A stretch of DNA of 58,892 nt from the IMG/VR virus record IMGVR_UViG_3300032320_002219, positions 1 through 58,892 of that record; one strand, given 5' to 3'. Made by a program: the position numbers and the translations under genes. Below are positions 7,368 through 56,045 of this stretch, one piece after another (within the stretch, counting starts at the first letter, position 1; each line of letters starts with the position of its first letter). A model generated the notes under the pieces. That model was not told the DNA's origin. It saw only the letters and a program-made list of their open reading frames with translations, and did no database searches. Source of the stretch: a virus. Its lineage: Duplodnaviria; Caudoviricetes.

Positions 7368-8358
7368 TTCCAGTGGCCCCGTACGTGGGAAGAGTCCGAA
7401 GCGGCCAGCCGGCAACGCTCGACAGAGCGATGCAGTTGCACCTGTCAATCGTGCTGGCCAACGCCCAAAATGCGCCGCTCGGGAGTTCGTAGTTCGTGCC
7501 GAGAACGCGACGAGGGCCGGAGTTCCAGTTCCCCCATTGGTTGAGCCACGCCACAAGCGGCTGGCCGTACTTCTTTACGGTCTCGGGCCGGTCGTCGTAG
7601 CCGATGAAACTTTGGGCGTGCGCCCAAGTGCCTCGCTGCTGCGAAAAACCGTCTTCGTTTCTCGAGTCCGAGAAACCCATGCTCGAGCAGTTGAAGACGC
7701 CGTAGCCGGCCGCGAGGAAATCTCGTACCTGCTCCCGTCCACGCAAAACAGTCGCGGTTCGAGCTCGGTGCTGCTTGGACTCGGCCAGCCATTTGTCGCC
7801 TGGGCGTTTCGATCCGCCGATCTTGATAGTGCGGTCGGTGTACTTCGTGAGGTCGATCGAAAGGTCCGGGTAGTTCTTCCGAATGAGGAAGCCCTTTTCG
7901 GTGGCCACCTGGGCGGCCTCGGAGCACACCCAGCCGTCTTGGTCGAAGCCCCTCCACGCCCAAAGAGACTCCGACGCAACCGGAATGTTCTTGATGCCCT
8001 CTTTCGAAAGCTCGGGAACGCCCTCGATTTTTCCAGTCTCTTCGTCGGGCTTTCCAGAGACAATCTCGCAGCACGTAGACGTAAGGAGGCAGTTTGCCGC
8101 TGCTTTCGCCACGCAGTCGCCCCAAAGTTGGGGCGGCCCTGGCCAGCAGCCTGGGAAAACGTGCTCGACATGAAGCCAGAGCATCGTGAGTTTTCCGGCC
8201 CCGGCCCCGGCCAGTTCCCATTCGTGCGCAACCTCTGCGCCGATCGGATTGCCGCCGGCACGAACGATGCTGTCTTCAAACAGTTCGTCTGCGCGGGGGT
8301 CTTTCCGGCAGCCGACGAGGCCGGAGTCGTAGGCTACTTTCGGGTCGAAGTCATTCAT
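7360..8358 (-). CDS. papain-like (C1 family) cysteine peptidase
   Basis: Q-LWGD-C, HAQSFIGYDD and LNQWG match the papain Cys/His/Asn motifs. Confidence 0.8.
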   Translation of the reverse strand: MNDFDPKVAYDSGLVGCRKDPRADELFEDSIVRAGGNPIGAEVAHEWELAGAGAGKLTMLWLHVEHVFPGCWPGPPQLWGDCVAKAAANCLLTSTCCEIVSGKPDEETGKIEGVPELSKEGIKNIPVASESLWAWRGFDQDGWVCSEAAQVATEKGFLIRKNYPDLSIDLTKYTDRTIKIGGSKRPGDKWLAESKQHRARTATVLRGREQVRDFLAAGYGVFNCSSMGFSDSRNEDGFSQQRGTWAHAQSFIGYDDRPETVKKYGQPLVAWLNQWGNWNSGPRRVLGTNYELPSGAFWALASTIDRCNCIALSSVAGWPLRTLPTYGATGNV

Positions 8359-8836: not shown

Positions 8837-9063
8837 TTATCGGACCCCACAACCAGGGCGAGCGTCAGCGTGTCGATTGCCTCTTTCTGGTCGTCGCCAA
8901 GCGTCTCGGTGTTCAGGAGCCGCCTGCGAACAAAAGCAAGATTCGCAATCGCTTCCTGGTACGACGGCCCAGTGCCGCGCGGCCCAGGAATCACGTTCTT
9001 GAGCTGCGGCCAGAGGCCGACGATGGCTGCCGCGGCGACCGACCCGATCTGCATCCAAGTCAT
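8833..9063 (-). CDS. small membrane protein
   Basis: MTWMQIGSVAAAAIVGLW. Confidence 0.65.
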   Translation of the reverse strand: MTWMQIGSVAAAAIVGLWPQLKNVIPGPRGTGPSYQEAIANLAFVRRRLLNTETLGDDQKEAIDTLTLALVVGSDK

Positions 9064-9332
9064 TGGTTCACCTTCTCCACCACCCAATCGAACGCTGCCT
9101 TGCCCTCTGGGCTCACCAGAATCGACTCGATGTGAAACATCACCTCGTCGTCCAGTTCCGTGTTTGACTTTCCTGCCGCCCACTGCAGGGCGTCGACGAT
9201 TGCCGCCGCCCGTTCGTGTGGGGTCTTTGCTTCCGAAAGCACCTGCACGCGAGCGATCAGTGGTGCCCATTCCGTTAGCAGCTTGATCTTCGCGAGAAAG
9301 CTAAGACTGTCCCCGTAGTTTTCCTCGTTCAT
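9060..9332 (-). CDS. hypothetical protein
   Basis: RBS; ATGA coupling. Confidence 0.7.
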   Translation of the reverse strand: MNEENYGDSLSFLAKIKLLTEWAPLIARVQVLSEAKTPHERAAAIVDALQWAAGKSNTELDDEVMFHIESILVSPEGKAAFDWVVEKVNQ

Positions 9333-12363: not shown

Positions 12364-12672
12364 TCAAGACTGAATCACGTGGCCGTTTCCGGTGAAGTGA
12401 TACGCCGGCGGTCGCCACCGAGCGACTGGTGTTCTCCGGCGGCGCTCAGTCATAGACCACCCAGCGCGAACCGCGGCAGCCCGAATCTCGATTTCCTCTG
12501 GTGAGGGATCGAGTTCGCAGACCTGACGCTTTCCGCTGTATCGCTTCGGCAGCCCCAGCCGCTTGGACTCTCGATACAAGGTTGTCATCGTGAGCCCGAG
12601 CTTGGAAGCCACTTCTTTTGTCATGAGCCGGTCGTCGGCCCACAACTCACGAATGCGATCGTCGTCTGGCAT
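12364..12672 (-). CDS. HTH protein (GcrA-like N-terminus)
   Basis: IRELW...EVASKLGLT.....KRLGLPKR. Confidence 0.55.
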   Translation of the reverse strand: MPDDDRIRELWADDRLMTKEVASKLGLTMTTLYRESKRLGLPKRYSGKRQVCELDPSPEEIEIRAAAVRAGWSMTERRRRTPVARWRPPAYHFTGNGHVIQS

Positions 12673-12962
12673 CACTCGTACCTCACGCAGGCGTACCAGC
12701 CACGAGCACCACGCGCCACGCCGATCTCGCGGGCGCGGTACTTCCCCCAAAAACAGCAGTTTTTGATGGCCGCGTCGGACGAGACCGAAGAGAATCCGAC
12801 TCCTTCTCGACGCCCCCTCGCGCCACCGCAGTGGCCGAGAACGCCTCGACGAGCCATCGTTTCAGCCGACTGCTGTGCAGTCACAGTCATTGTCACCGTC
12901 ACGTTCTGGGCAGACGCAACGGACGCAAACAGCAAGCAAAGGGACAAGATAACCGTCTTCAT
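12672..12962 (-). CDS. small secreted protein, possibly minimal CAP/SCP-like
   Basis: Signal peptide ASA-Q; GH, EGVG, G.A.G..GWY. Confidence 0.6.
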   Translation of the reverse strand: MKTVILSLCLLFASVASAQNVTVTMTVTAQQSAETMARRGVLGHCGGARGRREGVGFSSVSSDAAIKNCCFWGKYRAREIGVARGARGWYACVRYE

Positions 12963-12979
12963 AGAGACCTCCGTATCTA

Positions 12980-14429: not shown

Positions 14430-14603
14430 TCACTGCTTCTCCGTCCTTTCGGCAAGCAGCTCCTCTCGAAATACGAGAACCTTCGGCGGCGCCTTGATCC
14501 CAAGCCGCACCCGGCCGTTTGGCAGCACAGCCGCCACGACGATCTCGATGTCGACCTGGGGGATGATGACCTTCTCCCCGGCTTTTCTTGTCACAACAAG
14601 CAT
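14430..14603 (-). CDS. csrA: carbon storage regulator CsrA/RsmA homolog (57 aa, absent from the ORF track)
   Basis: Translated by hand: MLVVTRKAGEKVIIPQVDIEIVVAAVLPNGRVRLGIKAPPKVLVFREELLAERTEKQ; RBS AAAGGAG. Confidence 0.92.
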   Translation of the reverse strand: MLVVTRKAGEKVIIPQVDIEIVVAAVLPNGRVRLGIKAPPKVLVFREELLAERTEKQ

Positions 14604-14638
14604 CTTCCGACTCCTTTCGGATTGTGTTCGTGGGTAGC

Positions 14639-15109
14639 CTACGTGCGACGAGCACGAGAGTCAAGCCACGTTCTGCACGCCTCTTTGACGGCCTTTCGCT
14701 TGTGCGAGGATGCCGCCCATTCGATGTAGTCCATTCCGTTCTCTTGCTTGGATGCGTCTTCAATCGACAGCCCCTCGAAGATTCCGTCACGAAACACGAA
14801 GTCGTTGCCAACTGGTTCTGGCAGCACGCCTGCGATAGCAGGCACATGCTGGCCAGTGCCGCAGATCATGCACTCGATTCGCCATTCGCCTCGGTAGTCG
14901 TCGATGATGTCGAAATGACGCGATTGGCATCGCGTATCTGCACACTCATGCAAATCCCGTACCTGTCCAATAATTTCGTAGCCGCCGTGCACGACAACAG
15001 GCGCGAACTCGACTTCTTTTTTTGGCTCGACAACTGCAGAAGCCTGTCGCTTCGACTTCTTTTTGACGGGCTCTTCTTCCGAGATGTCAAACAATACGCC
15101 CTGGTTCAC
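14639..15109 (-). CDS. hypothetical Zn-ribbon protein
   Basis: C....C and CMIC. Confidence 0.6.
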   Translation of the reverse strand: MNQGVLFDISEEEPVKKKSKRQASAVVEPKKEVEFAPVVVHGGYEIIGQVRDLHECADTRCQSRHFDIIDDYRGEWRIECMICGTGQHVPAIAGVLPEPVGNDFVFRDGIFEGLSIEDASKQENGMDYIEWAASSHKRKAVKEACRTWLDSRARRT

Positions 15110-16861: not shown

Positions 16862-18544
16862 TCATGTCCCAATTCCGCGTGAATAACTGGCGGGTTTCGC
16901 AACCGAGACAGAAGCCTCGCCGGTAGCAATTCGCTCCAGTGCGCGCAAGTGCTTGGCAGTAAAGCGGATATAGCGTTTTGACGCCCCGCCGTCGCCGGTG
17001 TGCCGCCCAGACAAGAACCCAGATTCCCCAGTTTCCGCGAGGATGAGCTTCTTCATCATCTGCTGATCCCCGTCCATGAGCTTCCTGCGGCCCCTGTCGA
17101 CGTCCTCCCAGGCCCGCGACCACCCGAACCACAGTTCCCACTCACCGGCCTCGCTGCGGACCCAGGACGGCCTTCCGCCGGCATCTGGTGTGCCGTCCTC
17201 GGCCTCCTCGTCACCCGGCTCTGGGGTGAGGCTCAAGACGTCCAGGAGCCAGCCGGCGACCTTCGCGTACCGCAGGTCTTCCACGGTCGCCTCTTCTTCA
17301 AGGGCGGCGTCCATGAGCTTCGCCTTCAACCCTCGGATGGCCGGCTGCCCCTTCCTGGCCCCCTTGCCGCACCAGATCGTCGACCAAGTCTCTGGAACCT
17401 CGTCCAAGATGACCGTGTGGGTGGCCTCTAGGACAGCATGGGCGACCATAGCCGCCGACCTGTACTGCTCCGCGTTGAGCGTGACCTCGACCACCCGGTC
17501 TGCCCCTCGCTGGTGCACCGGCAGCGACAGCACGTAAACCACTGGGTCGTTGTGGATGACCCGCAGCCGCCACCGCCCAGGAAACCACTCGCCATCCCGG
17601 TACTCGAGCCCAGTCAGCGTGAACGGCGTGTCGACAGCCTCTTCTTCTGCTGGCTCGTCTTCTCCAGACAGGTGGGACTCGAGTTTCTCCTTCAGAAACG
17701 CCGGCCCCTCGCCGGCCGCCCGCACCTTGATGGCCCACTTGAGTTGCCCCTGCCAGATGGAGGTGATCTCCTTGTCGTCCAACGGCGGCCGGCACATCGT
17801 CTGGTTGATGGCCCGCGCCATCGCCAGCGTGTCCTGCTGCTCTCGCGGGTCGTGCGGGTCGAGCATCTGAATGCAGGCCCGCGAGATGTAGCGGCACATC
17901 TCGGAGTTTCGCTCGCCCTCGCCTGCGCCCTTGTGCAGAATCTCGCTGGCCGGCCGCTTTGACAGCGACGTTTCGCCGCCGGCATTGACGATCGCCTGCA
18001 GAAAAGCATCTGGAATCGGCGCGACGTCTACTTCGTCTGGCGAGAATCCATACTTCCAGCGATACCGCACGCCGCTGGCGTGAACAGACGGCGGAAAAAC
18101 AGACTGCGACCCGCGTGAGCCGCCTCCAATGCGAATCTCCAGCCCGCCGACCTTGATGACGGCCTGCGCCGGCAGGCGGGAATCGAACTTGAAGATGCGG
18201 TGTTCGCTGCGGTGCGACGTATAGGTCGGCGTCTCGATCGACGTCAGGCCGTATCGCTCGGCAGTCGCTTTGCCAGACTCATCGTCCCACTCGATGTCGA
18301 TAATGCCCGACGCCTCGCCAAGCGCGACGCCGACGTTGTGTTCCGTGCCGTCAAACCACTCGGCCAGCTTGTCCTCGTCTGTAGTAGCAGCACGCTGCCA
18401 CCCAGACACAACCGGATGCTTTCCTGGCGTGCCGCACGCCGGGTTTTTGCACGCGCATCGACCGTCCTCGCGCAGGCCGTAGACAGGGAGCGAGCGCCAG
18501 CCTCGCGCAGCATAGTCGGCTGCGCACTTGAAAACGTCTTCCAT
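16862..18544 (-). CDS. bifunctional primase-polymerase (Prim-Pol plus PriCT-like)
   Basis: C.C....C..PGKHP, NVGVALG..SGIIDIEWD, PPSVH.SG..Y.W, GERN. Confidence 0.85.
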   Translation of the reverse strand: MEDVFKCAADYAARGWRSLPVYGLREDGRCACKNPACGTPGKHPVVSGWQRAATTDEDKLAEWFDGTEHNVGVALGEASGIIDIEWDDESGKATAERYGLTSIETPTYTSHRSEHRIFKFDSRLPAQAVIKVGGLEIRIGGGSRGSQSVFPPSVHASGVRYRWKYGFSPDEVDVAPIPDAFLQAIVNAGGETSLSKRPASEILHKGAGEGERNSEMCRYISRACIQMLDPHDPREQQDTLAMARAINQTMCRPPLDDKEITSIWQGQLKWAIKVRAAGEGPAFLKEKLESHLSGEDEPAEEEAVDTPFTLTGLEYRDGEWFPGRWRLRVIHNDPVVYVLSLPVHQRGADRVVEVTLNAEQYRSAAMVAHAVLEATHTVILDEVPETWSTIWCGKGARKGQPAIRGLKAKLMDAALEEEATVEDLRYAKVAGWLLDVLSLTPEPGDEEAEDGTPDAGGRPSWVRSEAGEWELWFGWSRAWEDVDRGRRKLMDGDQQMMKKLILAETGESGFLSGRHTGDGGASKRYIRFTAKHLRALERIATGEASVSVAKPASYSRGIGT

Positions 18545-18563
18545 CGGGAATCCTCCGTGATTG

Positions 18564-18607
18564 AAAAAGTGCCGCTGGGGGGCGGGTGTGTCACGCCCCC
18601 CAGCGGC
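18564..18607 (-). terminator. intrinsic terminator/attenuator upstream of the primase gene
   Basis: 14-bp perfect stem (18571-18584 / 18594-18607) followed by ACTTTTT. Confidence 0.7.
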
Positions 18608-18741
18608 GAACGCTCGTCCATGCGCCATGCGCGGAGAAGGGCGCTGCTCATGGTCGAACTTCCGGTGTTATGAAGCCACCGCCGGCTGGGCTGGCGGCCG
18701 GCGAAAGTGCCGGTTGTGGGCCGCCGCCCCAGCCGCTGTGC

Positions 18742-19515
18742 TTACTCCTCGTCCTCGATCTCCACAGCACCGCCACCGATCGGCGGCGCCGTAAACATCG
18801 CGCGGATCGGGTCCGCGTAGGTGCGGCGAGCCACTTCGCCCTGCTCCTCGGAAATCTGTCCGACGAGACGCGGAACGATCTGGCTGTAGGGCTGACCGCC
18901 CTTGCCCTTCGAACGCACCAGCTTCAGGCCCACGACAGCCTCGTGCGGGAAGCACGGCAGGCGCTTGAGGAACGGAATGATGTTCCGCAGGCTACCTGGG
19001 CCGACGGTCACAAGGATCGGCCACGTTTCGCCCTGGCGAAGAATCGCCAAGACACGCGCCTCCTTGCACCGCTTGCCGCTGCCAGACCGCGACGAGCCGT
19101 AGCCAAACTCAGAGGAGTTGGCGAGCGCCGCCCAGTCGTACTTCCTGTCACCGATCCGGTAGCGCTCGAGCGCATCCGGGTCGATCGTTCCGAGATCGTC
19201 CGACACGCGGTATCCGACCATGAGGTCGTTCGACACCACCACCGGACGGGACTCGGACGGGTCTTCCGCCGGCCACAAAAGTCCCTTCTTGCCGATGCCG
19301 ACGAGAAGCCCGACGATTTCGTCGGTCGTCTCGACATTGCCATCGACGTCAATCGACCACTGCGTCGCGCCGCCGAGTGGCGTTTTGACGCGAACGAGAT
19401 CGGTCTCGCTCATCTGCTCGCCTTCCAGATTTGCAGCGATGACCTGCATCTGGCGGCTATTCGGCGAAAGCGCCGGGTAGTCGACCACCTTGGTCGACAG
19501 GGCTGTGGTAGCCAT
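18742..19515 (-). CDS. putative ssDNA-binding/replication protein
   Basis: GK.CKE motif, acidic C-terminal tail EIEDEE, replication context. Confidence 0.55.
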   Translation of the reverse strand: MATTALSTKVVDYPALSPNSRQMQVIAANLEGEQMSETDLVRVKTPLGGATQWSIDVDGNVETTDEIVGLLVGIGKKGLLWPAEDPSESRPVVVSNDLMVGYRVSDDLGTIDPDALERYRIGDRKYDWAALANSSEFGYGSSRSGSGKRCKEARVLAILRQGETWPILVTVGPGSLRNIIPFLKRLPCFPHEAVVGLKLVRSKGKGGQPYSQIVPRLVGQISEEQGEVARRTYADPIRAMFTAPPIGGGAVEIEDEE

Positions 19516-19551
19516 TACGAACTCCTTCTGTAGAAACTCACCGAACCAGCG

Positions 19552-20001
19552 TCAGCCAACCGTGACATGACGCAATTTCATCTCCACGAACTCACCGACG
19601 AGGCCGCTGAATGGCGTCCCGTCGGAGAAGGGCCGGCCGGCTTCCCTTCCGGCCTCTTTTGCCCGCTCCACCAACCACGCCTTGAGCGTGGGTGTGGCCA
19701 CCGTCGTGATCGCATCCTCGATCCCGACGGCACGCGCTGCCTCCAGCACCGCGTCTCGCCGATCCTTCGGCACCGACAGGCGAAGGGCTTCTTCGACCCG
19801 CCAACTCCTCCCTGCGACTCGAACTCCGTCGAGCCGTTGTGTTTTGATTTCTTCCACCGCGAGACTCTCCAACTCAGCGCGTTGCCGCTGTAGTTCGTCG
19901 ACCTGTGCAGAAACCGTGCCAATCGTCTTGTCGAGTTCGGCAATCCGCTCAAGCAGCGCCGACAAGCCCGTGTGTTGTTCTGTATCCACTGATGATTGCA
20001 T
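19552..20001 (-). CDS. coiled-coil hypothetical protein
   Basis: Heptad N-terminus; operon position. Confidence 0.65.
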   Translation of the reverse strand: MQSSVDTEQHTGLSALLERIAELDKTIGTVSAQVDELQRQRAELESLAVEEIKTQRLDGVRVAGRSWRVEEALRLSVPKDRRDAVLEAARAVGIEDAITTVATPTLKAWLVERAKEAGREAGRPFSDGTPFSGLVGEFVEMKLRHVTVG

Positions 20002-21886: not shown

Positions 21887-21972
21887 GCAGTCATAATCGT
21901 CCCGCAACCAGCGCTTGACAAGTCGAGTGGAGGATAGGAGACTTGCAATCGCCACGGAAGGAGCCGCAGCAA

Positions 21973-22182
21973 ATGCCGAAAAAACGATGGACCGTAATTG
22001 TTGACTGGAGCGACGGCGACGTTGCCGATGCCGATGAGGTTGTGGTTTACGCAGAATCTGCGGCCCAGGCAATCAGTATCGCCAAGCAAAAATGGCGGAT
22101 GACTGTCGGCGCCGCGTGGCCGGATTGTCGTTTTGAGCGGGCTTGGATTTTGTCCCCCAGCAGGCGGTTGGGGGTTGTCTAA
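21973..22182 (+). CDS. small hypothetical protein
   Basis: RBS AAGGAG; TTGACA upstream at 21915. Confidence 0.6.
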   Translation: MPKKRWTVIVDWSDGDVADADEVVVYAESAAQAISIAKQKWRMTVGAAWPDCRFERAWILSPSRRLGVV

Positions 22183-22217
22183 ACACAAGGAGGTGGCATA
22201 ACCCCCAGTTCAACTAG

Positions 22218-26301: not shown

Positions 26302-26658
26302 TCACGACTTCATGGTGACGATGCAGACGGCGGCCGTAGAGGCGGTCGTGGCCGACACGAGCTTGATCGCGCCGCAGCCATACGTCTCGTCGGGGAGGGC
26401 GTAGACGCGGGCCTCAGTTGTTGAAGGGGCCAGGGTCAGGTCGGCCGCCGAGCCGTCCACTTTGTAGAGCCGGCCAAAAGTGCTCGACGGAGTGTCGGAC
26501 GCCCAGACTTGAATGGTCGTGGCCGCGGTGCTGACGGTGCCCATCTCCAGGGTGCCGCCGGCGACATCGTCCCAGCGGAGCGTCGTGGCAGCGTCCACCG
26601 ACGTCGAAAGAGTAACGGGGACCGACTTGAACTTGCGACGAATCTTTGGCTCAGACAT
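26302..26658 (-). CDS. Thr/Ser-rich virion-like protein
   Basis: Beta-rich composition; strong RBS. Confidence 0.6.
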   Translation of the reverse strand: MSEPKIRRKFKSVPVTLSTSVDAATTLRWDDVAGGTLEMGTVSTAATTIQVWASDTPSSTFGRLYKVDGSAADLTLAPSTTEARVYALPDETYGCGAIKLVSATTASTAAVCIVTMKS

Positions 26659-26712
26659 CGGCACCTCCTTGTGCGTTGCGGGCCTCTAGGGCCGCTCGTG
26701 GCGTGTCACAGG

Positions 26713-29261: not shown

Positions 29262-29283
29262 GGCTATATTGTGTGCCGGTAGC

Positions 29284-29739
29284 CTATTGGGTCAATGGGG
29301 GTTTCTGCCCCTTCCTGGCGTTTGAGATCGCCCGCTTTACCAAAAGGCGAGCCGCCGTCTCGATAAATGGCAGTTTCCGCTTCACTGCCTCCTCCTTCAG
29401 CCAGCCAACAATTTCGTCAATCCGCCGCTCGCACTCGTCCGCACCCCACAGGTTCATTCTGGCGGCGTGTGCGTTGCATGAGCACCCCGGCGCGGCCGTG
29501 ATGCCGATCATCGAAAGCAGTTTTTTGAGTTCCGCGCCGGGGCCGTTGACGTTAATCTCTCGGGGATTTGCTTGCACAAGATCAGTTGGCGTCACGCCTA
29601 AGTCTTGCATTCCTTTTTTGCAACCAGCAAACGGCTTTTCGGCCGAGACTGCCTTCGGCACGACCGCGCCGCACCGCTCGCACGTCCAGTTGTCTGCACT
29701 GTCAGCCCATAAACAAAACAACCCCGGCGGCGCTGCCAT
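29284..29739 (-). CDS. Cys-containing hypothetical protein
   Basis: CERC, GPG.EL, CSC...MN.WG...C. Confidence 0.65.
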   Translation of the reverse strand: MAAPPGLFCLWADSADNWTCERCGAVVPKAVSAEKPFAGCKKGMQDLGVTPTDLVQANPREINVNGPGAELKKLLSMIGITAAPGCSCNAHAARMNLWGADECERRIDEIVGWLKEEAVKRKLPFIETAARLLVKRAISNARKGQKPPLTQ

Positions 29740-34851: not shown

Positions 34852-37800
34852 CTACAAGTCGACGACTACTCCTGTTGTGGCGCGGATTGCGTTCTCGATG
34901 GCCTGAAGCAAGTCAGACTGCTTCCGCAACTCCAGGAGGTTGACGTCCTTCGCGGCATCGTCACCGCGAAGCAGCCTGTTGAGCTCCCTCGCCCCTTCGG
35001 TTGTCTGGACGTCCTGGGCGTTTAGGGCCGCCCGAGACGGTCCCGCAAGCCTCGCGTTCATGACTTCGTCGGCGAATTGCGCGAGCAGAGGAGCGGCTTG
35101 TCGCGCTAGGTTGTTGGCTGCGTTCTGCACCTGCGACTGAACCTGGGCACGCGGCACTCCATCTGCTCGCATTTGCGCGGCGGCGTTGCCGATGTCCCCG
35201 GCGCTTGCCCGGAGTTGCTCTTCAGCACGCTGCCGCTCCGTCTTCATGAGTTCGCGGCCACGGGCTGCTGAGTCTTTGCGAGCACGCTCCCTGTCGGCTT
35301 CGTCTGCCTTGCGGCGCTCGTCTTTTACGCCGGGTCTGTTCTCGAACTCACGCTCCTGCTCTCGCCGCAGCCTGTCTGCCTCGGCCTTTGCCGCCTCACG
35401 CTCGGCGGCTGACTTCCGCTCGTCGGCCGCGTCGGCCTCCAGTTGGCGGATTTTTTCTGCCCTGGCAGCGGCTGCTGGATTTGCCCCGGCGGCGATTTCA
35501 TCCTCGAACTTTGTCCGCTCGTCGGCGATGGCTTTTCTTGCTCTTGCAGCCTCGTCGTCGGCGGCTCTCGCTGCGTCCTCACGGCGCTTCTGCTCTGCCC
35601 GAGCCTCGCGCGCTTGCGGCGACCTTTCGCCAAAGATTGCCTCGGCTTCGTTGGCCCGCCGGCGGGCAGCCTCTGCGGCCCCTTGCGATTCGGAAGCGAC
35701 CTTGTTCTGCAGATCGAGAGCCGCCTTGTTGGCGGCTGCCTGGAACGCACCGACAGCAATCGCCGCAGCGTTCAACCGCGCGGCATGGGCATCCATTGCG
35801 TTGATGTCGGTCTGAATGGTACTCGCAAGCTCGCCAAAGTTTTGCTGCAGCGCCTCGTCTCGCTGTTGTTCAAGCGACTGCCTTTGCACTTCCAGTGCAG
35901 TAAGCTCGCCCTCAATGTTAGAGGCAAAACCCTGAACTTCGTCTCGGGCGCGCTTGGACTGGGCGTCGAAGCCGCCGGCCCTGTTCTGCGTTCTGTCTAT
36001 GGTTTGATTTACGAAATCTTCCCGCTGCCTTGCAACTTCTTTAGCAAGTTCTTCAATCCGATCCGTGAGTTCCTCTGGAATGTCGGCTCCGGTTTGCGCG
36101 GCGTCGTCGATCTTCCTCTTTGCCTCTTCCATTGCGCGGGACAAGTCTGCCGCGGCTTTCACGGAGTCTCCACCGAGCGCAGCCGCCATTCGCTTATTGC
36201 CGCTCTGTATTCCGCCAACGACGTCTGCCCTGCCAATTGTTCGCTCGTTGAACTTTCGAGACGCCTCGATCTCTGCCTGCCGCGCGCGGTCGCGTTCGTC
36301 TGCGGCCTCGCGAAACGGCTCTAGCCTGTCCTCAAGCAACCTGCGGAGCTGCGCGTCTGCCTCGTCGGCCCGCTGTTTACCTGCAAGTTGCTGATCGACG
36401 CCAAGCGTCATGTTCTCTTGATCCAGCCGCCCCTGCTGCACCTCGCGAGCCAGATATCCAACGCGCCCTTGGCCCGCTTTTTCGCGCTCAAACTTGGCAC
36501 GTTCGTTTTCTGTCTCTCGCTGCAGTTGTCGGTCGCTGTCTTCCTGCTCTCTCCGGCGGCGCTTGGCCTCCTCTAGTTCGCGCCTCGCGCCAGGACCGAG
36601 TTCACGGTCTTCGGCAACGCGGTTGGCTCGTCGTCGGGCTCTCTCGACGTCCGACTGTGCTTCGCTGACGAGAGTTCTCGACAGATTCAGGGCCGCTTCT
36701 TCTGCAGCACGCTGGAACGCTGCCACAGCGATTGCGGCCTTGCCGACCTCGCCGGCCAGCAGACGAATCTTCTCAAGTTCTTTGTCGATGGCCGCGACGT
36801 CGGCTGCGCCGGCTGGGCCGCGAAGTTCAGCGCGTCGCCGGCGGTTTTCTAGCTCTTGGCGATCCGCCTCGAATCGGGCAGCGTTTGAACCTGCGAGAGT
36901 CGGCCCCCCGGCGGTTCCGGCGATTTGTGCTGCGGTGGCCAGCCTTTCCGCGGTCGGGACGAAATTCCCGAGGGCCGCGTCCCTCGCGAGGGCGTCTGCT
37001 TGCTGATAAAGCGATTCAAGAGCCTTGGCCGCAGTCTCTGCTTCTGTCTTGAGGGCAGAGATGTCAGCACTCGGGTCTAGACGCAGGGCTTCTTCAATCT
37101 TCTTTACTGCGTCTGCGAGGCCGGTCGCAGGCGCGCTGAACTGCTCTTCGAGACGGCCGCGGACGTCTCCGTCGAGCCGCAGCGCGGCCAAATCTTTGAA
37201 TACGCCCTTGATCTCTTCTTGGGCGATCAGCGCTTGCTCGGCAAAACCAGCGGCAGTGTCATCAGCGCCGTTGCGGATTACTTCCTTGAGCCTCTCGAGT
37301 TCGGCATTCAGTTCAACAATGACCTTTTCGTTTATTTGAAACGCTTCGACGGCGGCGAACCGGCCCGGAAGAGCAATCTGGAAGCCGCCCAGGGCATCCT
37401 CTAGTTGCGCCGCAATTCTGTCGATCGGATCAGCGGTCTGCTGCGTTTTTATCAGCTCGTCAAGCCGCGATTCAATGGCTTTGACAGCCTCCTGCTGCGT
37501 CGTCGGCGCAGTCACCCTCTCGGCGCGAAGTCCCGCAAGTCTCTCGCTGCGGCGCTGTTCGCCAAAGGGCACAATGGCAGCAGATTCTCTCCTGCCGAGA
37601 GAAGTTAACTCAGCCTGCCTTGCTCTCTCAAGAAGATTTCCAACGCCGGTCAGCCGCCCGCCCGGTGCCCTGCCGTCAAGAGGCGTTGTAGACCTCTCAA
37701 TTGCGTCTCGCTCTCGCTTTCGGAGTTGCTCAAGTTCTCTGGCAAGTCGCACTCGCTCACTGCCGGTGGCTTTTGAAAGACGCTCCTCGGCGGCAGCGCG

Positions 37801-40104
37801 GGCGCCGGCTGCGCCAGAAACCTCTGGCGACGCGCTGCGGACTTGAGCCTCGCGCGATTTCTTCTGCTCTTCGCGCAGGTCTTTGATTCGCTGCTCAATG
37901 TCTCCGCGTGGCCCACTTTGAGACGCAGCCCTCAGCGCCTTGGCCATGTCCTCGAAGGCTTTTTTGTTCTGCTCGGCAAGGTTTCTCGACTTCTCAAGTT
38001 CGTCGTTCATGAACTTGAGTGCGCCTTCGGCTTCCTTGGACGCCTTCCCAAGGCCGCTAAATTGAATAAGCAGCTGCGCTCCAACCGTCGCCGCAACGCC
38101 CGCAATCAACCCCTTTGTGCCGCCGAGAACGAAGCCGAACTGGGAAATGTTGTTGCTGATCGCCCGCAGCTTGTACTCAAAGCCGCCCGTGGACGAGAAG
38201 AAGTCGTCGACCGCAAACGTCAACTGCTGCAACGCAAGCTGGCCGGCCATTGCAGAGCCGCGTAGACCGGAGATGTCGCCTCGCAGTCGGCGGTTGGCAG
38301 ACAGAAGCCTGTCAAGTTGTTTTTCTGTAAACCTCGTCGGGTCGAGGCCGGCAAGTTCCGTCGCCAGTGCTTTGCTCTCGGCACGAATTTGTGCCAGAAG
38401 CCTCTCTGCGTTGGCGTTGCCTTCTGGAGTCCGAGGCTGGGAGGCGATCTGCTGATAGAGCGACTTGACCTTTGCCCTCGACGCCTCAAGGGAGGCGCCG
38501 AACTTCGTGCCGAGTTCTTCGTTCAGGTTGCCGCCAAGGTTCAGCAGCAGCTGAAAGTCGTTGATGTAGTCCTTGACCGCGCGAGGCTGCAGGTTGATGG
38601 CCGTTGACGAATCGAACTCGTTTAAAAGTTGCTGCTGCTTGGCGGCGGCCCTGGTGTCCTGCTCAAGGTCTGAGATAGTGCGACGGAGCGTTTCGATCTC
38701 TGCCTTTAGCGGCGTTGTTTTCTGGTTTACGAGCCTCTGCAGGCTTGCAGTGGCGCCGTCAAGCCGCTTCTGAAGGTCTCCCGCCAGACTTCCATCGAGT
38801 TTTCCGATAGAGTCCTGAAGCTGCCTCGCTCGGCCGCCGATGTCTTCGCTCAGTGATCTGCGCCTGCGGGCTCCGATGACTTCGTCGCGGGCCACTCCGG
38901 CTGATAGAAGCTCTCGGTCGACGTCTCGCCGCTTGGAAGCCTCGCTGCCCAGCGAGGAGACGCTGTCTCTTGCCGACTTGTTTATGTTGTCAATCGTCGC
39001 CCGAGCGCCCGCAAGCCGCAATCCGGCGTCTGCCTGAGAATTGAGTTTTGCGAGTGCCGCAGCGGCAGCGGCGCTTCCCTCCGCTAACGACTGGGACGCC
39101 TGGGCGGTGCTTCTGATTTGCTCTGCGTAGCTGTCGAGACCCGCCGCGCGAAGTGCCTGGATGGCTTGGGCGGCTTTCTGTGCAGTCCTCTCTGCCTCTG
39201 TCCCCGCGGACGGCGCGATCATGCCGGCAACGGACGCCAGAGACGTCACGTTCGCGAGCCTTTGATTGCGAATCGACTGCTGCTCTGTTTCTCTGTCGAG
39301 CCTTGCCTGGGCCGCTGCCTGCTCACGCGCAGCGGATGCCGCCGACGAAAGGGCAACAGAATTCGTCGGACTCCTGGACAGGACCGACTCTGCCACGGCG
39401 GCTTTCAGTTTCGCGCGCTCAACCTTTGCGGTGAGCGCTTCAATTCGCTCTGACGCCGCAGCCGCGTCGCGAATGATCCCCTGAAAGAACGGGTCTTCCC
39501 GCTGGGCGGCCGGAAGCTGGGCAGCCTTGTCTCGCAGGGCGATGAATTTCTGCAGTTCCTCGAGCGCCCGCGGCTGAACGAACTTGGCTCCGGCGTTCTC
39601 GGTGGCCAGCCCGCCAGTGACCCTGCTGAACTCCGAGACAACAGCGGTGCTGGCCTTCAGCCGCTCGATCTGCTTCGTAAGCGCGTCGATCCTCGCTCGC
39701 GAGGCGTCGAATGTCGTCGTGCCGGCCTGGATTTCCTTGAAGAGGTTCTGGAAGCCCTTTTGGGCTCGCTCAAGGGCGGGATACAGATACGCCTGAGTCG
39801 ACGAGGCCAGCGACTCGATCTGTCCCTTGACCTTTGTCAGCGGCTTGCCGATGTCTTCGAAGACCTTGTAGAGGTCTTGAAGCGCTCCAACGTCGATCTT
39901 CTTGCCGAGGGCTTCCTGCAGCGTCCTGCGAAAAAGCTGGACTTTTGTCAGCGTCTTGTCGAGCGCCGAAGTCTCAAGGTTAAGGCGATAGCCCTGGACT
40001 TTCTTCTGCAGCGAATTTAGCTCGGACTTCACGCTCCCAATGGTGCGGGTGAAGTCCGTGGCGTTCGCCGTGATGACTGCAGAGATTTTTCCTAGAAGAG
40101 CCAT
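34852..40104 (-). CDS. tape measure protein
   Basis: 1750 aa, Ala/Arg/Glu/Gln-rich helical protein after the tail chaperones. Confidence 0.92.
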   Translation of the reverse strand: MALLGKISAVITANATDFTRTIGSVKSELNSLQKKVQGYRLNLETSALDKTLTKVQLFRRTLQEALGKKIDVGALQDLYKVFEDIGKPLTKVKGQIESLASSTQAYLYPALERAQKGFQNLFKEIQAGTTTFDASRARIDALTKQIERLKASTAVVSEFSRVTGGLATENAGAKFVQPRALEELQKFIALRDKAAQLPAAQREDPFFQGIIRDAAAASERIEALTAKVERAKLKAAVAESVLSRSPTNSVALSSAASAAREQAAAQARLDRETEQQSIRNQRLANVTSLASVAGMIAPSAGTEAERTAQKAAQAIQALRAAGLDSYAEQIRSTAQASQSLAEGSAAAAAALAKLNSQADAGLRLAGARATIDNINKSARDSVSSLGSEASKRRDVDRELLSAGVARDEVIGARRRRSLSEDIGGRARQLQDSIGKLDGSLAGDLQKRLDGATASLQRLVNQKTTPLKAEIETLRRTISDLEQDTRAAAKQQQLLNEFDSSTAINLQPRAVKDYINDFQLLLNLGGNLNEELGTKFGASLEASRAKVKSLYQQIASQPRTPEGNANAERLLAQIRAESKALATELAGLDPTRFTEKQLDRLLSANRRLRGDISGLRGSAMAGQLALQQLTFAVDDFFSSTGGFEYKLRAISNNISQFGFVLGGTKGLIAGVAATVGAQLLIQFSGLGKASKEAEGALKFMNDELEKSRNLAEQNKKAFEDMAKALRAASQSGPRGDIEQRIKDLREEQKKSREAQVRSASPEVSGAAGARAAAEERLSKATGSERVRLARELEQLRKRERDAIERSTTPLDGRAPGGRLTGVGNLLERARQAELTSLGRRESAAIVPFGEQRRSERLAGLRAERVTAPTTQQEAVKAIESRLDELIKTQQTADPIDRIAAQLEDALGGFQIALPGRFAAVEAFQINEKVIVELNAELERLKEVIRNGADDTAAGFAEQALIAQEEIKGVFKDLAALRLDGDVRGRLEEQFSAPATGLADAVKKIEEALRLDPSADISALKTEAETAAKALESLYQQADALARDAALGNFVPTAERLATAAQIAGTAGGPTLAGSNAARFEADRQELENRRRRAELRGPAGAADVAAIDKELEKIRLLAGEVGKAAIAVAAFQRAAEEAALNLSRTLVSEAQSDVERARRRANRVAEDRELGPGARRELEEAKRRRREQEDSDRQLQRETENERAKFEREKAGQGRVGYLAREVQQGRLDQENMTLGVDQQLAGKQRADEADAQLRRLLEDRLEPFREAADERDRARQAEIEASRKFNERTIGRADVVGGIQSGNKRMAAALGGDSVKAAADLSRAMEEAKRKIDDAAQTGADIPEELTDRIEELAKEVARQREDFVNQTIDRTQNRAGGFDAQSKRARDEVQGFASNIEGELTALEVQRQSLEQQRDEALQQNFGELASTIQTDINAMDAHAARLNAAAIAVGAFQAAANKAALDLQNKVASESQGAAEAARRRANEAEAIFGERSPQAREARAEQKRREDAARAADDEAARARKAIADERTKFEDEIAAGANPAAAARAEKIRQLEADAADERKSAAEREAAKAEADRLRREQEREFENRPGVKDERRKADEADRERARKDSAARGRELMKTERQRAEEQLRASAGDIGNAAAQMRADGVPRAQVQSQVQNAANNLARQAAPLLAQFADEVMNARLAGPSRAALNAQDVQTTEGARELNRLLRGDDAAKDVNLLELRKQSDLLQAIENAIRATTGVVVDL

Positions 40105-40108
40105 TTCC

Positions 40109-40417
40109 TCATCCTTGAGGTGCCCGCAGTTTCATCAGTTCCGAAATGATCTGTTCCTGCGTTTGTTGCGGCGCAACTGCAGCAGGAATGAACGTGTTTT
40201 CGTCTGGTACTTTCTTGTAGTTCCCGCTGGCCGCCATGACGATCCGGCAAATTCTCGCCGTCTGCGCCCAGGGGTTTGGCAGTGGCCATCGCTGGTCGAA
40301 GGCGTACCACTCCGAAAGCTCCTCGCTGTCCAGTTCGGACAGCAGTTGTTTGACGGTTTTCCCCAGCGCCAGCGCTAGGCGGAAGTAGAACCTCCGCTCT
40401 GGCCTGTCTGTAAATCT
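40109..40417 (-). CDS. tail assembly chaperone extension (gpT-like), made by -1 frameshift
   Basis: Slippery G GGA AAA at 40423-40417; the -1 frame reads RFTDRPERRFYFRLALALGKTVKQLLSELDSEELSEWYAF... to TGA at 40109. Confidence 0.85.
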   Translation of the reverse strand, partial: RFTDRPERRFYFRLALALGKTVKQLLSELDSEELSEWYAFDQRWPLPNPWAQTARICRIVMAASGNYKKVPDENTFIPAAVAPQQTQEQIISELMKLRAPQG

Positions 40418-40746
40418 TTTCCCAGGGCATCAACGTCCTCCGAGCGGAAGGCATTGTGGGCCCACGCCTTTTCAAACAGCCGCGAAATCACGGTGGCAGA
40501 CTTCTTCCCGAGATCGTCTGCCTCCGCATCGGCGAACAGGCGCTCCCCTTTGCTGTCGCACAGCGTCAGGATCAGAAAGCGAACGCGGAAGTTCTTCATC
40601 TTGTCGGTGCTGTACGCGTCCTCGAACGCGTCGCGCTCCGTGCCGGAAAGTGTCTTGATGTAGACGTCGCCGCCCCACTCAGGAACAGAAATCGCTTCCG
40701 TCTTGACGTCATCGGCCGCCAGAATCTTTGCCTTGTTCAAAGCCAT
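40375..40746 (-). CDS. tail assembly chaperone (gpG-like)
   Basis: VPEWGG.V...LSG.ERD, CD..G.RLF, ...LGK. Confidence 0.85.
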   Translation of the reverse strand: MALNKAKILAADDVKTEAISVPEWGGDVYIKTLSGTERDAFEDAYSTDKMKNFRVRFLILTLCDSKGERLFADAEADDLGKKSATVISRLFEKAWAHNAFRSEDVDALGKDLQTGQSGGSTSA

Positions 40747-40768: not shown

Positions 40769-41134
40769 TTACGGCACGTAATCGGTCAAACGAAACTTCA
40801 TCGTACCACGAACCAATTCACCAGCGCTTGCTTCGACTGTCGCACTTTCCAGGATTCCGCGTCTTGAAACAGTGATTGCTGTCGAAGCAAAAACAATCTC
40901 CCCGACGGTCCCTAGTTCCGCGTTGGGGACGGCATCTGCCAGATAGTCGATTGTAATCGAGCCCCCCGTGTACGCGCCGGTCGGGACTGCAACAACTTTG
41001 TTGACAGGGTCGAACATTCCGGTCATGTCCACAATCTCTGCCGTCGGCGTCTCGACCTGAATGCCGACCACGTTTCCGATGGCAGAGCCATTGAACGACA
41101 CCGAGGCGCTGTACGGTATTCCGGGCATTGTCAC
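40769..41134 (-). CDS. tail-tube-like protein, paralog 3
   Basis: Shares G..TIDY and AS.GELVRG...FR with its neighbours. Confidence 0.6.
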   Translation of the reverse strand: MTMPGIPYSASVSFNGSAIGNVVGIQVETPTAEIVDMTGMFDPVNKVVAVPTGAYTGGSITIDYLADAVPNAELGTVGEIVFASTAITVSRRGILESATVEASAGELVRGTMKFRLTDYVP

Positions 41135-41490
41135 ACCCCGACGCGGAAGGAAGCCGAGCCGCGCACAAGCTCGCCAAGCGACGCGCTGACTTGGGATGAG
41201 ATGCAGGTCGCTGACGTATACGGGCCGAACGCCAGCTTGCCTGACACTGTGAGTGTCGCGTTCGCCCCAACAAGCGGGGCTGTTGCGCCGATGAAATCGA
41301 CCTGCACGGTGGGGAGCGAGTCGACGGAGCGGTGCAGGTAGTAAACTGGCTCGATGTCGTTCGGCCCCAGCCCCACGTGCGCCCCGGATACGCGTTCGCG
41401 CTCCTGGCCCAAGTCAACGCTAACGCTCGTGACCGTGTAGGCAGAAGCGCCGAACGTGAACGACGTCCCCTGCGAGCTTGTGCCTGCCAT
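41131..41490 (-). CDS. tail-tube-like protein, paralog 2
   Basis: MAGTSSQGTSFTFG...TVTSV...GELVRGSASFRV. Confidence 0.65.
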   Translation of the reverse strand: MAGTSSQGTSFTFGASAYTVTSVSVDLGQERERVSGAHVGLGPNDIEPVYYLHRSVDSLPTVQVDFIGATAPLVGANATLTVSGKLAFGPYTSATCISSQVSASLGELVRGSASFRVGV

Positions 41491-41496
41491 GTCGCC

Positions 41497-41835
41497 TTAC
41501 GCGACGCGGAAGGTCGCGCTCCCTGACACGAGGGCACCGACCGAGCCGCCGATCGAAGACGAAGCGATCGTCGCCGTAACGCCGGTGAACTGGAACGGTC
41601 CGGTGATCGAGAGGTTGCCGCTGATGCCGGCGGTGAGGATGACGTTCGAGATGTAGTCGATCGTGACCTCGCGCTCCGTGGCGAATCCGCCCACGAACTC
41701 ACGGCGGCCGTTCGGGGCGATGCCGAGGTGCGAGCCGTCGAGGAGGTCTTGGGTGTCATTGACCTGAACGCTTGTGACCGTGAGCGTGGTGCCGCCGAAA
41801 ACAAAGGTCAAACCCTGGGACGAAACGCCTGCCAT
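41497..41835 (-). CDS. major tail (tube) protein, paralog 1
   Basis: MAGVSSQGLTFVFG...TVTSV...GALVSGSATFRV; strongest RBS; follows the tail terminator. Confidence 0.7.
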   Translation of the reverse strand: MAGVSSQGLTFVFGGTTLTVTSVQVNDTQDLLDGSHLGIAPNGRREFVGGFATEREVTIDYISNVILTAGISGNLSITGPFQFTGVTATIASSSIGGSVGALVSGSATFRVA

Positions 41836-41867
41836 GTTTGCTGCGCCTCCTTGCGCCTAAAAAACTG

Positions 41868-45337: not shown

Positions 45338-45528
45338 GGCTTCTTTTTCTTTGGCCTGCTGTCAATGAATGCCCGTTCGCACCGCTCCTCGACGGCAGCC
45401 GCCTCCGGTTCGTTGCGAACCTCCTCGACCATGCCGCGGCCGATGAAGATGCGGCACATGCCATCGGCCCAGTCGAACACCTGCCCGACCTTGTAGCCGC
45501 GAAACGCCTTGGCGATGCGAATCTTCAT
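45334..45528 (-). CDS. small head-associated protein
   Basis: MKIRIAK...Y..GQV...I.RG; ATGA coupling. Confidence 0.6.
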   Translation of the reverse strand: MKIRIAKAFRGYKVGQVFDWADGMCRIFIGRGMVEEVRNEPEAAAVEERCERAFIDSRPKKKKP

Positions 45529-46256
45529 GCCACGAACCCCCATGCGTCGCTCGGCGGCTTCTGGCCGCTGTTCCAGAAGTCGGTCGTGTGCTGCTGAATC
45601 TTGCCGCCTTCGACAGTCCGCGATGGCCAAGTCACCATCAGTTCGCAGTGGCCGACGCTGACGTTGGTCGCGATTCCCAGCTTGTTGCCGGAGGCCGAGA
45701 ACGATTTCCAGAACGCAATATCTTCGTCCAGGTGGCCGCCGTTGTATTCTCCCTGCTCGTTGGCGCGGCCCTCGAACCACGGCTTCTTCATCTTCTTGAT
45801 GGCTGCGGTGCGGATGAACGTGCAGCCGAAGTGAGCCGTCTCGGCTATCTGGACCGGCTTGTTGAACCAGTCGTCGTCGACGCTCGTCTTATCGTCCACG
45901 CTGACGCCGGGGAGGGCGAACATGACGGCGTTCGACTCCCGCTTCGTCTGAAGCGGAGCGATGGCGTCCACGCCGGCGTGCATCATCAAGGCTAGGAGAG
46001 CCTCCACGGTCTTGGCCGTGAAGACGGTATCGTAATCGAACGTGAGCACGACGTCGTGCGTGTCGATCACCGTCTCCATGCTGCGCTGGAGGCACTGGCC
46101 CCAGAACGCGCCCGTGTACTTGATCGGAGAAATCCGATGCGGGGCCAGCGCTTGGGAGACGCAGAAGAAATTGTCGGTGAAGCCGAGGCGAGGGCAGGAC
46201 ATAAGCGCCGCTACCTTCACCTCGGCTTCACAATTACCGATTCGCAGAAACATCAC
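45525..46256 (-). CDS. GT2-like glycosyltransferase in the head module
   Basis: DYD (DxD), FGC.FI, ED..F, VGH. Confidence 0.75.
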   Translation of the reverse strand: MMFLRIGNCEAEVKVAALMSCPRLGFTDNFFCVSQALAPHRISPIKYTGAFWGQCLQRSMETVIDTHDVVLTFDYDTVFTAKTVEALLALMMHAGVDAIAPLQTKRESNAVMFALPGVSVDDKTSVDDDWFNKPVQIAETAHFGCTFIRTAAIKKMKKPWFEGRANEQGEYNGGHLDEDIAFWKSFSASGNKLGIATNVSVGHCELMVTWPSRTVEGGKIQQHTTDFWNSGQKPPSDAWGFVA

Positions 46257-46332
46257 TCGCTCCTTGTGTAGGAGCGGGCGCGCGTCCTTGCGCCTTTAGT
46301 CGGCCGTCGTGGCCGTCCCGCTTGTATCGGGA

Positions 46333-48153: not shown

Positions 48154-48329
48154 TTTTGACTGACTCCTGTTGAGCCGGCCAAAAACGCAAAAGCGACGGC
48201 CGGCGGGTAAAAGTCCCGCAAGCGCGCCGCACTTTGAGTCCTCAAAGCACTCGCACCATCTCCAAGCGAAATCCTCGCTTGGAGTTGTGTATTTCTGTAG
48301 CCTAGCAGACGAAGGGGGTGGCGTGCAAC

Positions 48330-56028: not shown

Positions 56029-56045
56029 CCACCCGGAACTAGACT

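Follow-up and report, generated by a model that had tools for sequence, protein, structure and literature searches.

A CsrA-family gene in a clade of uncultivated tailed phages and conserved GGA-hexaloop hairpins before it and before virion-region genes: a candidate phage-internal regulatory circuit

The window analysed here is the whole of the IMG/VR virus record IMGVR_UViG_3300032320_002219 (58,892 bp, 60.7% GC; completeness by CheckV, 100%), and our subject is its short csrA gene, the hairpin that holds the ribosome-binding site (RBS) of this gene and the hairpins of the same design found before other genes of the same genome. The two central features are as follows.

14430-14603, minus strand: csrA, encoding a 57-residue CsrA-family protein (Pfam PF02599)
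14606-14621, minus strand: csrA leader hairpin TCCGA-AAGGAG-TCGGA, whose hexaloop holds the Shine-Dalgarno (SD) sequence 7 nt upstream of the ATG

Around them, the window encodes a large terminase, portal, head protease, major head protein, head-tail adaptor, tail completion protein, tail terminator and tail assembly chaperone, as well as helicases, a primase-polymerase, a DNA methylase and a tyrosine integrase; the integrase is matched by Pfam and PHROG profiles and the primase-polymerase by a Prim-Pol Pfam profile. This gene content, with structural modules, replication genes and an integrase, identifies the window as an uncultivated temperate, integrase-bearing, siphovirus-like tailed phage. 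No tRNA genes were found in the window. Public sequencing runs that contain parts of it are labelled as freshwater or lake metagenomes, and none of these is an RNA run.

The initial annotation had read the otherwise unannotated 57-residue open reading frame as CsrA, and profile searches confirm this assignment: the match to PF02599 covers profile positions 1-50 of 53 and scores 54.2 bits, where the cut-off is 27 (E=1.4e-14), and a six-frame search of the whole record with the same profile returned a single match (52.7 bits). The NCBIfam equivalog cut-offs were missed (47.6 bits vs 73 for NF002469 and 46.3 vs 70.1 for TIGR00202), and by its sequence the phage CsrA is a member of a divergent short subfamily and no equivalog of the canonical bacterial protein. 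In phmmer alignments, residues 1-50 are placed over RsmE (2jpp) and CsrA (1y00), with MLVVTRK over MLILTRK and FREE over HREE; an arginine occupies the position of RsmE R44, the N-terminal LVxTR is conserved, and L2, V3, T5, R6, V32, R33, P39, R46, E47, E48 and L49 are invariant among 36 family members. We take the N-terminal L-x-x-T-R and the R44-equivalent arginine to be residues of the RNA-binding strands. A homodimer was predicted with a score of 0.45, compared to 0.00 for the best of three controls, at a predicted local distance difference test score (pLDDT) of at least 74; among proteins of solved structure, this mark is reached by 20 of 30 same-chain pairs and by 1 of 23 single chains. 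At least 98% of contacts are shared between the prediction runs, and one chain touches residues 31-36 of the other with its strand 1. Such an interdigitated predicted dimer shows likeness to CsrA only, since the solved CsrA dimers may be remembered by the model.

At the DNA level, megablast of the window against deposited phage records returned no relative, and tblastn of the phage CsrA against 50,697 such records gave no match at E<=1e-3. A CsrA profile scan of 185,579 species genomes recovered only CsrAs that are at most 54% identical (Planctomycetota, Acidobacteria, Clostridia and others); the CsrA of one relative carries a Caulobacteraceae label from a metagenome-assembled genome, which is too weak for a host assignment and was not used. 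Relatives were gathered from viral contigs through their CsrA and portal proteins, and ten contigs were taken whole: seven csrA-bearing genomes (G001-G007), a structural-module fragment (G008) and two more distant fragments (G009 and G010). These relatives are phylogenetically close, and the counts of conserved hairpins given below do not represent independent events. In three sets of clade records searched, csrA was found in 5/5, 2/5 and 19/30, and none of the nine records with a completeness of 90% or more lacks it; those without csrA are all fragments (35%-74% complete), one of which starts at gene 26658 and has its csrA side cut off. Because all near-complete records have csrA and the csrA-less ones are fragments, the gene is, on this comparison, a core gene of a large phage clade that encodes a minimal CsrA of 53-58 residues.

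CsrA represses glgC, and Escherichia coli csrA regulates itself, through hairpins that contain GGA. The consensus for RsmE-bound RNA is (A/U)CANGGANG(U/A), and the motif obtained by SELEX is RUACARGGAUGU, according to the accessible part of the source (PMC6849547); CANGGAYG within a hexaloop has likewise been given as the CsrA motif in the accessible text of a preprint (bioRxiv 10.1101/2020.08.24.265819). Stem-loop 2 of RsmZ, CCCCG-AAGGAU-CGGGG, has served as a positive control in one paper, and the same paper warns of the resemblance between A(N)GGA and the SD sequence (PMC4066749).

The leader of the phage csrA provides the clearest evidence for such a structure. Thirty distinct csrA leaders of the clade yielded 23 distinct 22-nt windows, which were anchored only on the SD-proximal GGA, and at least three pairs are present in 20 of the 23, by our reading of the alignment. 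Across these leaders, 84.3% of cells are paired as opposed to 53.4% after shuffling (0/500 shuffles reach the observed value), and 36 cells carry changes on both sides of a pair compared to 9.8 in shuffled sets (again 0/500), with all five pairs changing on both sides. The shuffle control ignores the relatedness of the leaders, which is made up for by the slid control: in slid registers, 18%-35% of cells are paired. The stems vary among at least nine sequences (TCCGA, GCTGA, CTGA, GCAA, CAGG, AACGG, GAGG, AGGA, ACGGA and CGCA), and the loop A[AC]GGA[GCT] stays constant around all of them. The closing pair is A-U in 15 of the 23 and G-C in six, unlike the C-G of the consensus. On this comparative evidence, the hairpin is kept by selection as an RNA structure in which the GGA of the SD is shown in an A-N-G-G-A-N hexaloop, and the RBS-bearing, autoregulation-type hairpin that had been proposed for csrA is borne out as a structure by compensatory covariation in five of five pairs. 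It resembles the autoregulation of E. coli csrA in that one phage site lies on the regulator's own mRNA.

The initial annotation had further listed nine hairpins of this design elsewhere in the genome, and all ten are present, each at its position and on its strand. The nine are given here with the genes that they precede, a second hairpin of the glycosyltransferase (GT) leader and, for two of the weaker sites, the pair probability calculated by RNAfold in sequence context.

41843-41856, minus strand: hairpin GCGC-AAGGAG-GCGC, RBS of the tail-tube-like gene 41497-41835
26661-26674, minus strand: hairpin GCAC-AAGGAG-GTGC, RBS of gene 26302-26658
46280-46293, minus strand: hairpin HP1, GCGC-AAGGAC-GCGC, in the GT leader, not the SD
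46258-46276, minus strand: hairpin HP2, CGCTCCT-loop-AGGAGCG, which pairs the GT SD with an anti-SD and is part of the minimum free energy structure
45525-46256, minus strand: GT gene, with the probable start at ATG 46253, not GTG 46256
40107-40120, minus strand: hairpin CCTC-AAGGAT-GAGG, RBS of the tape-measure gene
34852-40104, minus strand: gene for a tape-measure-sized protein of 1750 residues
9339-9352, minus strand: hairpin GCGC-AAGGAG-GCGC, RBS of gene 9060-9332
18549-18562, minus strand: hairpin AATC-ACGGAG-GATT, RBS of the primase-polymerase gene 16862-18544
12965-12978, minus strand: hairpin AGAT-ACGGAG-GTCT with a closing U.G, before gene 12672-12962 (RNAfold 0.02)
21955-21966, plus strand: 3-bp hairpin CGG-AAGGAG-CCG, RBS of gene 21973-22182
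22184-22195, plus strand: 3-bp hairpin CAC-AAGGAG-GTG, 22 nt before the integrase start at 22218 (RNAfold ~0)

The loop coincides with the SD, 6-11 nt from the start codon, before csrA, the tail-tube-like gene, gene 26658, the tape-measure gene, gene 9332 and the primase gene, and the stem closes with C-G (CANGGANG) in seven of the ten listed hairpins. On both strands of the window there are 337 ANGGAN sites, of which 19 are flanked by stems with at least three Watson-Crick pairs and 10 by stems with at least four. The rate of 4-bp stems (10/335, 3.0%) compares with a background of 0.57% for any 6-nt loop, so that 10 such hairpins stand against 1.9 expected (5.3-fold; binomial p=2.8e-5), and among the 256 loop patterns of this shape ANGGAN ranks first. 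Of the ten hairpins with at least 4 bp, seven closely precede gene starts; those at 2766, 16399 and 19758 are intragenic. Among the 31 start-proximal ANGGAN sites, six have stems of 4-5 bp and the remaining 25 have 0-2 bp; when the 5' flanks were permuted among these sites, the mean was 0.55 and none of 20,000 permutations reached six. A register test on 71 start-proximal GGA sites and 49 loop registers gave six matches for the NNGGAN hexaloop and 0-2 for each of the others, with an average of 0.05 over the 42 registers off the same-hairpin diagonal. The enrichment is limited to the hexaloop register, i.e. 2 nt 5' and 1 nt 3' of GGA.

These figures bear directly on the possibility that palindromic flanks such as GCGC simply happen to surround AGGAG in a GC-rich genome as a matter of chance and SD composition. 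GCGC is self-complementary and common at 61% GC, it forms three of the ten stems, and several of the listed sites are 3 bp long or unconserved. Nevertheless, the composition-keeping flank permutation (0/20,000), the first rank of ANGGAN among the 256 patterns, the enrichment of one register only, the covariation of the csrA leader and the retention of hairpins in 75-79 of 78-79 relatives together disfavour chance strongly, and we regard it as very improbable. The claim that the set amounts to more than SD sequence and chance, for which a flank-shuffled control had been suggested, is upheld by the six start-proximal stems as opposed to 0.55, by the single enriched register and by conservation in relatives.

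Three late or virion-region genes have well-conserved hairpins. The hairpin of the tail-tube-like gene is kept in 79 of 79 relatives, being identical in 73, CACGC/GCGTG in four and reduced to 3 bp in two; its stem has an RNAfold pair probability of 0.13. The gene itself follows the tail terminator gene, and only tube/Hcp-like folds are matched, all weakly (best E 0.016; pLDDT of the model, 68); the product is called tail-tube-like from its position and this weak fold match. The stretch between the tail terminator and chaperone genes (41131-41835 and 40769-41134, minus strand) holds three small genes (112, 119 and 121 residues), and two of them share the start ATGGCAGGC; paralogous tube-like proteins may be involved. 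The hairpin of gene 26658, whose 118-residue product has no family match, is found in 75 of 78 relatives with an invariant core (loops AAGGAG, TGGGAG in seven, AGGGAG in four and ACGGAG in one), is retained in three relatives (L332, L333 and L335) despite a replaced upstream flank, and has a stem probability of 0.98.

The GT leader departs from this pattern. The hairpin listed before the GT gene, HP1, is present and conserved in 78 of 78 relatives; it is not the RBS, since the true SD lies 15 nt downstream, within HP2. The loop of HP1 reads AAGGAT in 45 relatives, ATGGAG in 20, AAGGAG in six, AAGGAC in five, ATGGAA in one and AAGGAA in one, i.e. positions 2 and 6 vary and A1, G3, G4 and A5 are fixed, which is the core pattern of CsrA sites; the argument that the non-SD loops speak for more than SD holds up, A1, G3, G4 and A5 being retained in all 78 relatives. 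The HP1 stem is invariant in 23 distinct sequences, and across the same number of distinct sequences 93.8% of HP2 cells pair, with no compensatory changes. The invariant CCCGCTCC that follows HP1 pairs with the true SD, AGGAGCG, in HP2, and the two GGAs, one in the HP1 loop and one in the SD, stand 17 nt apart and are conserved jointly in 77 aligned GT leaders. As a whole, the leader (46254-46322, minus strand) forms a conserved noncoding element of ~65 nt with the hairpin CGGCC/GGCCG, the GGA hexaloop and the anti-SD/SD pairing, and ~34 of its columns are invariant among the 77 aligned sequences. The GT product was identified by fold only: a fold search gave 276 PDB matches of the GT-A fold at E<=0.001, and a sequence profile search against PDB gave none. 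It has an invariant D-Y-D, its gene lies between the head and the head-tail connector genes, and the viral glycosyltransferases STIV A197 and Mimivirus R699 are among the closest folds; the predicted glycosyltransferase in the head-tail module suggests virion glycosylation.

The tape-measure hairpin (RNAfold 0.95) follows a looser course. When the tape-measure and primase leaders of relatives were compared by eye, the tape-measure hairpin was found to be identical in G001, compensatory in G008 (GAATC/GATTC), altered to CTTC/GAGG with one G.U in G003 and interrupted by one mismatch in G007, and G006 has no hexaloop hairpin; by this comparison, it is a partly conserved, less stable module across the clade. 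Its 5' arm and loop fall where the chaperone frameshift frame ends in ...QG*. In this region, the chaperone gene (40375-40746, PHROG 344) is followed by a start-less open frame that ends ...QG* at 40109-40111, before the tape-measure ATG, and the layout of 40109-40746 (minus strand) is the usual one for a programmed-frameshift chaperone extension. The stem covariation looked for in homologs was thus obtained for the csrA leader and in part for the tape-measure leader, and not for the GT and gene-26658 leaders, where compensatory changes are absent and the stems invariant.

The remaining sites fare less well. The gene-9332 hairpin is found in 2 of 12 relatives, with an RNAfold probability of ~0, and is by this comparison lineage-specific. 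The primase hairpin has at least three Watson-Crick pairs in none of nine relatives and an RNAfold probability of ~0, and is probably incidental; directly upstream of the primase RBS (18563-18640, minus strand) lies a GC-rich hairpin with a U-tract that resembles an intrinsic terminator, and such a hairpin is also seen in nine of nine relatives (L472-L480), with stem sequences that vary by lineage. The integrase hairpin resembles an SD, but no start codon follows at the spacing of one, and it is hence no RBS; in the gene-21973 stem two of the three pairs reach ~0.7 in RNAfold; 3-bp stems such as these two are reached by ~2% of sites by chance. We read all four of these hairpins, before the primase gene, gene 9332, the integrase gene and gene 21973, as probably incidental or confined to a lineage. 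Gene 12672-12962, which follows the hairpin with the closing U.G, encodes a 96-residue product with a signal-peptide-like N-terminus. The post-transcriptional target set originally put forward, which spanned replication, lysogeny and virion genes, thereby narrows: its virion-region hairpins are conserved, that of the tape-measure gene in part, and its primase (0/9), gene-9332 (2/12) and 3-bp integrase and gene-21973 members are weak. Judged from these alignments, the conserved core consists of csrA and three late or virion-region genes.

A candidate for a CsrB-like sponge, i.e. three ANGGAN hairpins within ~400 nt in relatives (gene 19552-20001 and its neighbour; 19300-19800 of the window), was rejected as coding-driven, because the variation is codon-patterned and the GCCGGC arms encode an Ala-Gly repeat; the 7-bp hairpin there has the loop ACCGAT or ACCGAC, not GGA, in the window, G002 and G005. 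Within the same stretch, GCCG-AAGGAT-CGGC at 19758-19771 (minus strand, inside gene 19552-20001) has the form of RsmZ stem-loop 2 and is likewise read as coding-driven. Nucleotide conservation of the stretch is unusually high among the six genomes compared (G001-G005 and the window), and the identical 14-mer of the hairpin recurs at 2766-2779 on the plus strand.

The genome-wide excess of ANGGAN hairpins extends to the relatives, with 3.6-6.3-fold enrichment and ranks of 1-4 among ~250 patterns in G001-G007, and 4.2-fold enrichment in the fragment G008. Start-proximal hexaloop hairpins with at least 4 bp number two to six in each of G001-G008, none in G009 and one in G010. By contrast, none were found in any of five unrelated GC-rich phages, phiC31, L5, D3, BcepMu and Bcep22, in which the genome-wide ratios range from 0 to 2.3-fold, none of them significant. 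In Burkholderia phage Bcep22, the CsrA-like gene gp54 (L114 31170-31364) immediately precedes the gene for the major head protein.

We favour an autoregulated, phage-internal CsrA circuit over virion genes, which on this comparative sequence evidence we hold to be somewhat better than an even bet. It is preferred to mere display of the SD and to chance because a core csrA gene is accompanied by a covarying hairpin in its own leader, because the hexaloop register is strict and a conserved non-SD hairpin stands beside an SD-sequestering one in the GT leader, and because start-proximal hairpins are absent from the five unrelated phages. In the mechanism that we infer, which comprises CsrA binding as well as the sign and the biological purpose of the regulation, the phage CsrA dimer would bind ANGGAN loops by analogy with the binding of (A/U)CANGGANG(U/A) hexaloops by RsmE and CsrA. 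Binding would cover the SD and keep 30S subunits from loading, and the result would be negative autoregulation of csrA together with dose- or time-dependent limits on a few virion or late proteins. For CsrA dimers that bridge two GGA sites there is a distance rule. In the GT leader, the HP1 loop and the SD GGA held in HP2 could be bridged by a single dimer, and translation could then be either locked off or, through an opening of HP2, switched on. The marginal four-pair stems speak against a purely structural role and fit protein-stabilised sites.

The same hairpins might instead be CsrA-independent cis modules, which display the SD in a loop of a GC-rich mRNA or cap 5' ends against RNases, with the phage CsrA acting mainly on host mRNAs. 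Intergenic gaps of 33-77 nt lie before the hairpin genes, with 36 nt in the case of csrA, and most of these genes have strong AAGGAG(G) SDs; the mostly invariant stems leave constraint at the sequence level possible, and host manipulation has been proposed for mobile-element CsrAs in the accessible text of two papers (PMC11879866, PMC9928087). Yet display of the SD needs no strict hexaloop with A1, and only that register is enriched; HP1 of the GT leader is not an SD, and the true SD is paired in a stem, the opposite of display; the tape-measure AAGGAT and GT AAGGAC loops are weaker SDs and are nonetheless conserved; start-proximal hairpins number zero in the five other GC-rich phages; and the strongest covariation falls on the csrA mRNA itself. 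In view of these observations, we consider cis modules of this kind rather unlikely.

Less likely still is that a host CsrA/Rsm protein reads the sites and couples late-gene translation to host physiology, the phage CsrA then being a mimic or competitor by which sponge RNAs of the host are titrated. The site design fits the general bacterial CsrA/Rsm consensus; the covarying autoregulation-type hairpin on the phage csrA mRNA points instead to the phage protein. To our knowledge, alphaproteobacteria commonly lack a chromosomal csrA. The accessible part of a survey of phage csrA alleles describes Sinorhizobium meliloti as devoid of chromosomal csrA and reports csrA phages in csrA-less hosts (PMC7366521), which weighs against a host reader, and the accessible text on the plasmid protein RsmQ, which takes global regulatory control in its host, is a point in its favour (PMC9928087).

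Several considerations weigh against the phage-internal circuit. The predicted binding and regulation rest on sequence and comparison; a regulator encoded in the replication module that represses abundant virion proteins has no obvious rationale; and a host CsrA could be the binder. The hairpin is missing in 3 of the 23 csrA leaders, and in the window its stem reaches a pair probability of ~0.45 in RNAfold; the stems of the tail-tube-like gene, GT, gene 9332, the primase gene and the integrase gene stay below 0.15. Four or five of the ten listed sites are unconserved or only 3 bp long, AGGAG is also the SD, such that purine-rich GGA loops are expected for most sites anyway, and outside the csrA leader and, in part, the tape-measure leader, invariant stems cannot separate structural from sequence constraint. 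Bcep22, which is unrelated and carries a csrA, has a ratio of 1.5-fold and no hairpin before its own csrA. No csrA-less member of the clade was found among the records at least 90% complete to serve as the csrA-less control that the initial annotation had suggested. An Rfam scan of the window gave no family at the gathering score and no sponge RNA, and FliW was not searched for. Finally, the gene starts and the 82 gene calls were made with a home-made codon-bias caller instead of a standard tool, and the control set consists of only the five unrelated GC-rich phages.

Apart from the hairpins, the csrA leader is preceded by a promoter-like element, the core motif of which recurs in the window.

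14634-14664, minus strand: promoter-like TTGACT-17 nt-TAGGCT(AC), followed by ACACAA, inferred upstream of the csrA leader
14634-14641, 29279-29286, 48297-48304 and 58751-58758, minus strand: TAGGCTAC(C)
8330-8337, plus strand: TAGGCTAC(C)
9702, 41874, 42490 and 51944, minus strand: further occurrences of AGGCTACC
18989, plus strand: further occurrence of AGGCTACC

TAGGCTAC occurs five times against 0.23 expected and AGGCTACC eight times against 0.62 expected, and ACACAA often follows TAGGCTAC(C) after 5-7 nt. The motif lies mostly on the transcribed strand in gaps, namely before csrA, gene 29261, gene 9688 and the tail-tube-like gene and in the major-head-protein gap; the copy before csrA is conserved among relatives of the clade. 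It could be the -10 element plus start region of a phage promoter; a scan with the sigma-70 consensus found no sites near csrA and did not call the promoter-like element. Elsewhere, tandem repeats at 55595-55896 consist of a 17-nt unit repeated 13 times (79% matches), nested in a 66-nt unit repeated 4.6 times. The array sits in a 670-nt gap upstream of the terminase region and is preceded by a strong terminator-like hairpin at ~55990-56040; it could be a packaging or replication-origin element.

Compared with known systems, the phage circuit would resemble repression by CsrA, RsmA and RsmE, as in RsmE-hcnA and CsrA-glgC, in its Pfam CsrA protein, its predicted dimer and its mostly C-G-closed ANGGAN hexaloops over the SD. 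Unlike CsrA and RsmE, the regulator is phage-encoded, 57 residues long and below the equivalog cut-offs, its candidate targets are late virion mRNAs of the phage, and no sponge of the CsrB/RsmZ type was detected. Its hairpins have the same single-hairpin form as those of RsmZ, RsmY and CsrB, but they occur one per mRNA leader and are not clustered in a small RNA. Among phages, csrA alleles have been reported in 30 of 2517 genomes, their function being untested in the accessible part of that work (Sobrero and Valverde, 2020; PMC7366521), and knock-down of the csrA gene PTXU04_00028 by CRISPRi-ART has led to smaller plaques, a role in the life cycle having previously been untested according to the accessible text (PMC11879866). 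As far as the accessible portions of these two sources go, they provide gene presence and one fitness phenotype, without cis sites on phage mRNAs. Host manipulation is the role proposed for CsrAs of mobile elements in the accessible text of PMC11879866 and PMC9928087; RsmQ of plasmid pQBR103 takes global regulatory control and acts on host behaviour (PMC9928087, accessible part), and CsrT of Legionella, encoded by an integrative and conjugative element, is linked to control of its own element (as cited in the accessible part of PMC7366521). RsmQ and CsrT are CsrA-family regulators of mobile elements like the phage CsrA, but neither is viral. We know of no set of SD hairpins on the mRNAs of the RsmQ or CsrT elements. 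No account of CsrA sites on phage mRNAs turned up in our literature search, and supplementary tables may list related phages.

In its fullest form, the proposed circuit would be clade-wide and self-contained: a core minimal CsrA would repress itself and set the timing or stoichiometry of the tail-tube-like protein, GT, the gene-26658 product and some tape measures, perhaps in a csrA-less host, and this would be the first virus-encoded CsrA regulon on viral mRNAs. We consider this extended version possible, at slightly less than an even chance. As an alternative to host manipulation, the circuit is testable, with defined RNA sites of 14-16 nt on phage mRNAs and an easily purified 57-residue protein. 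If true, it would provide a compact, orthogonal protein-RNA repressor pair, and translational control by a virus-encoded CsrA would join the known ways in which phages schedule virion synthesis.

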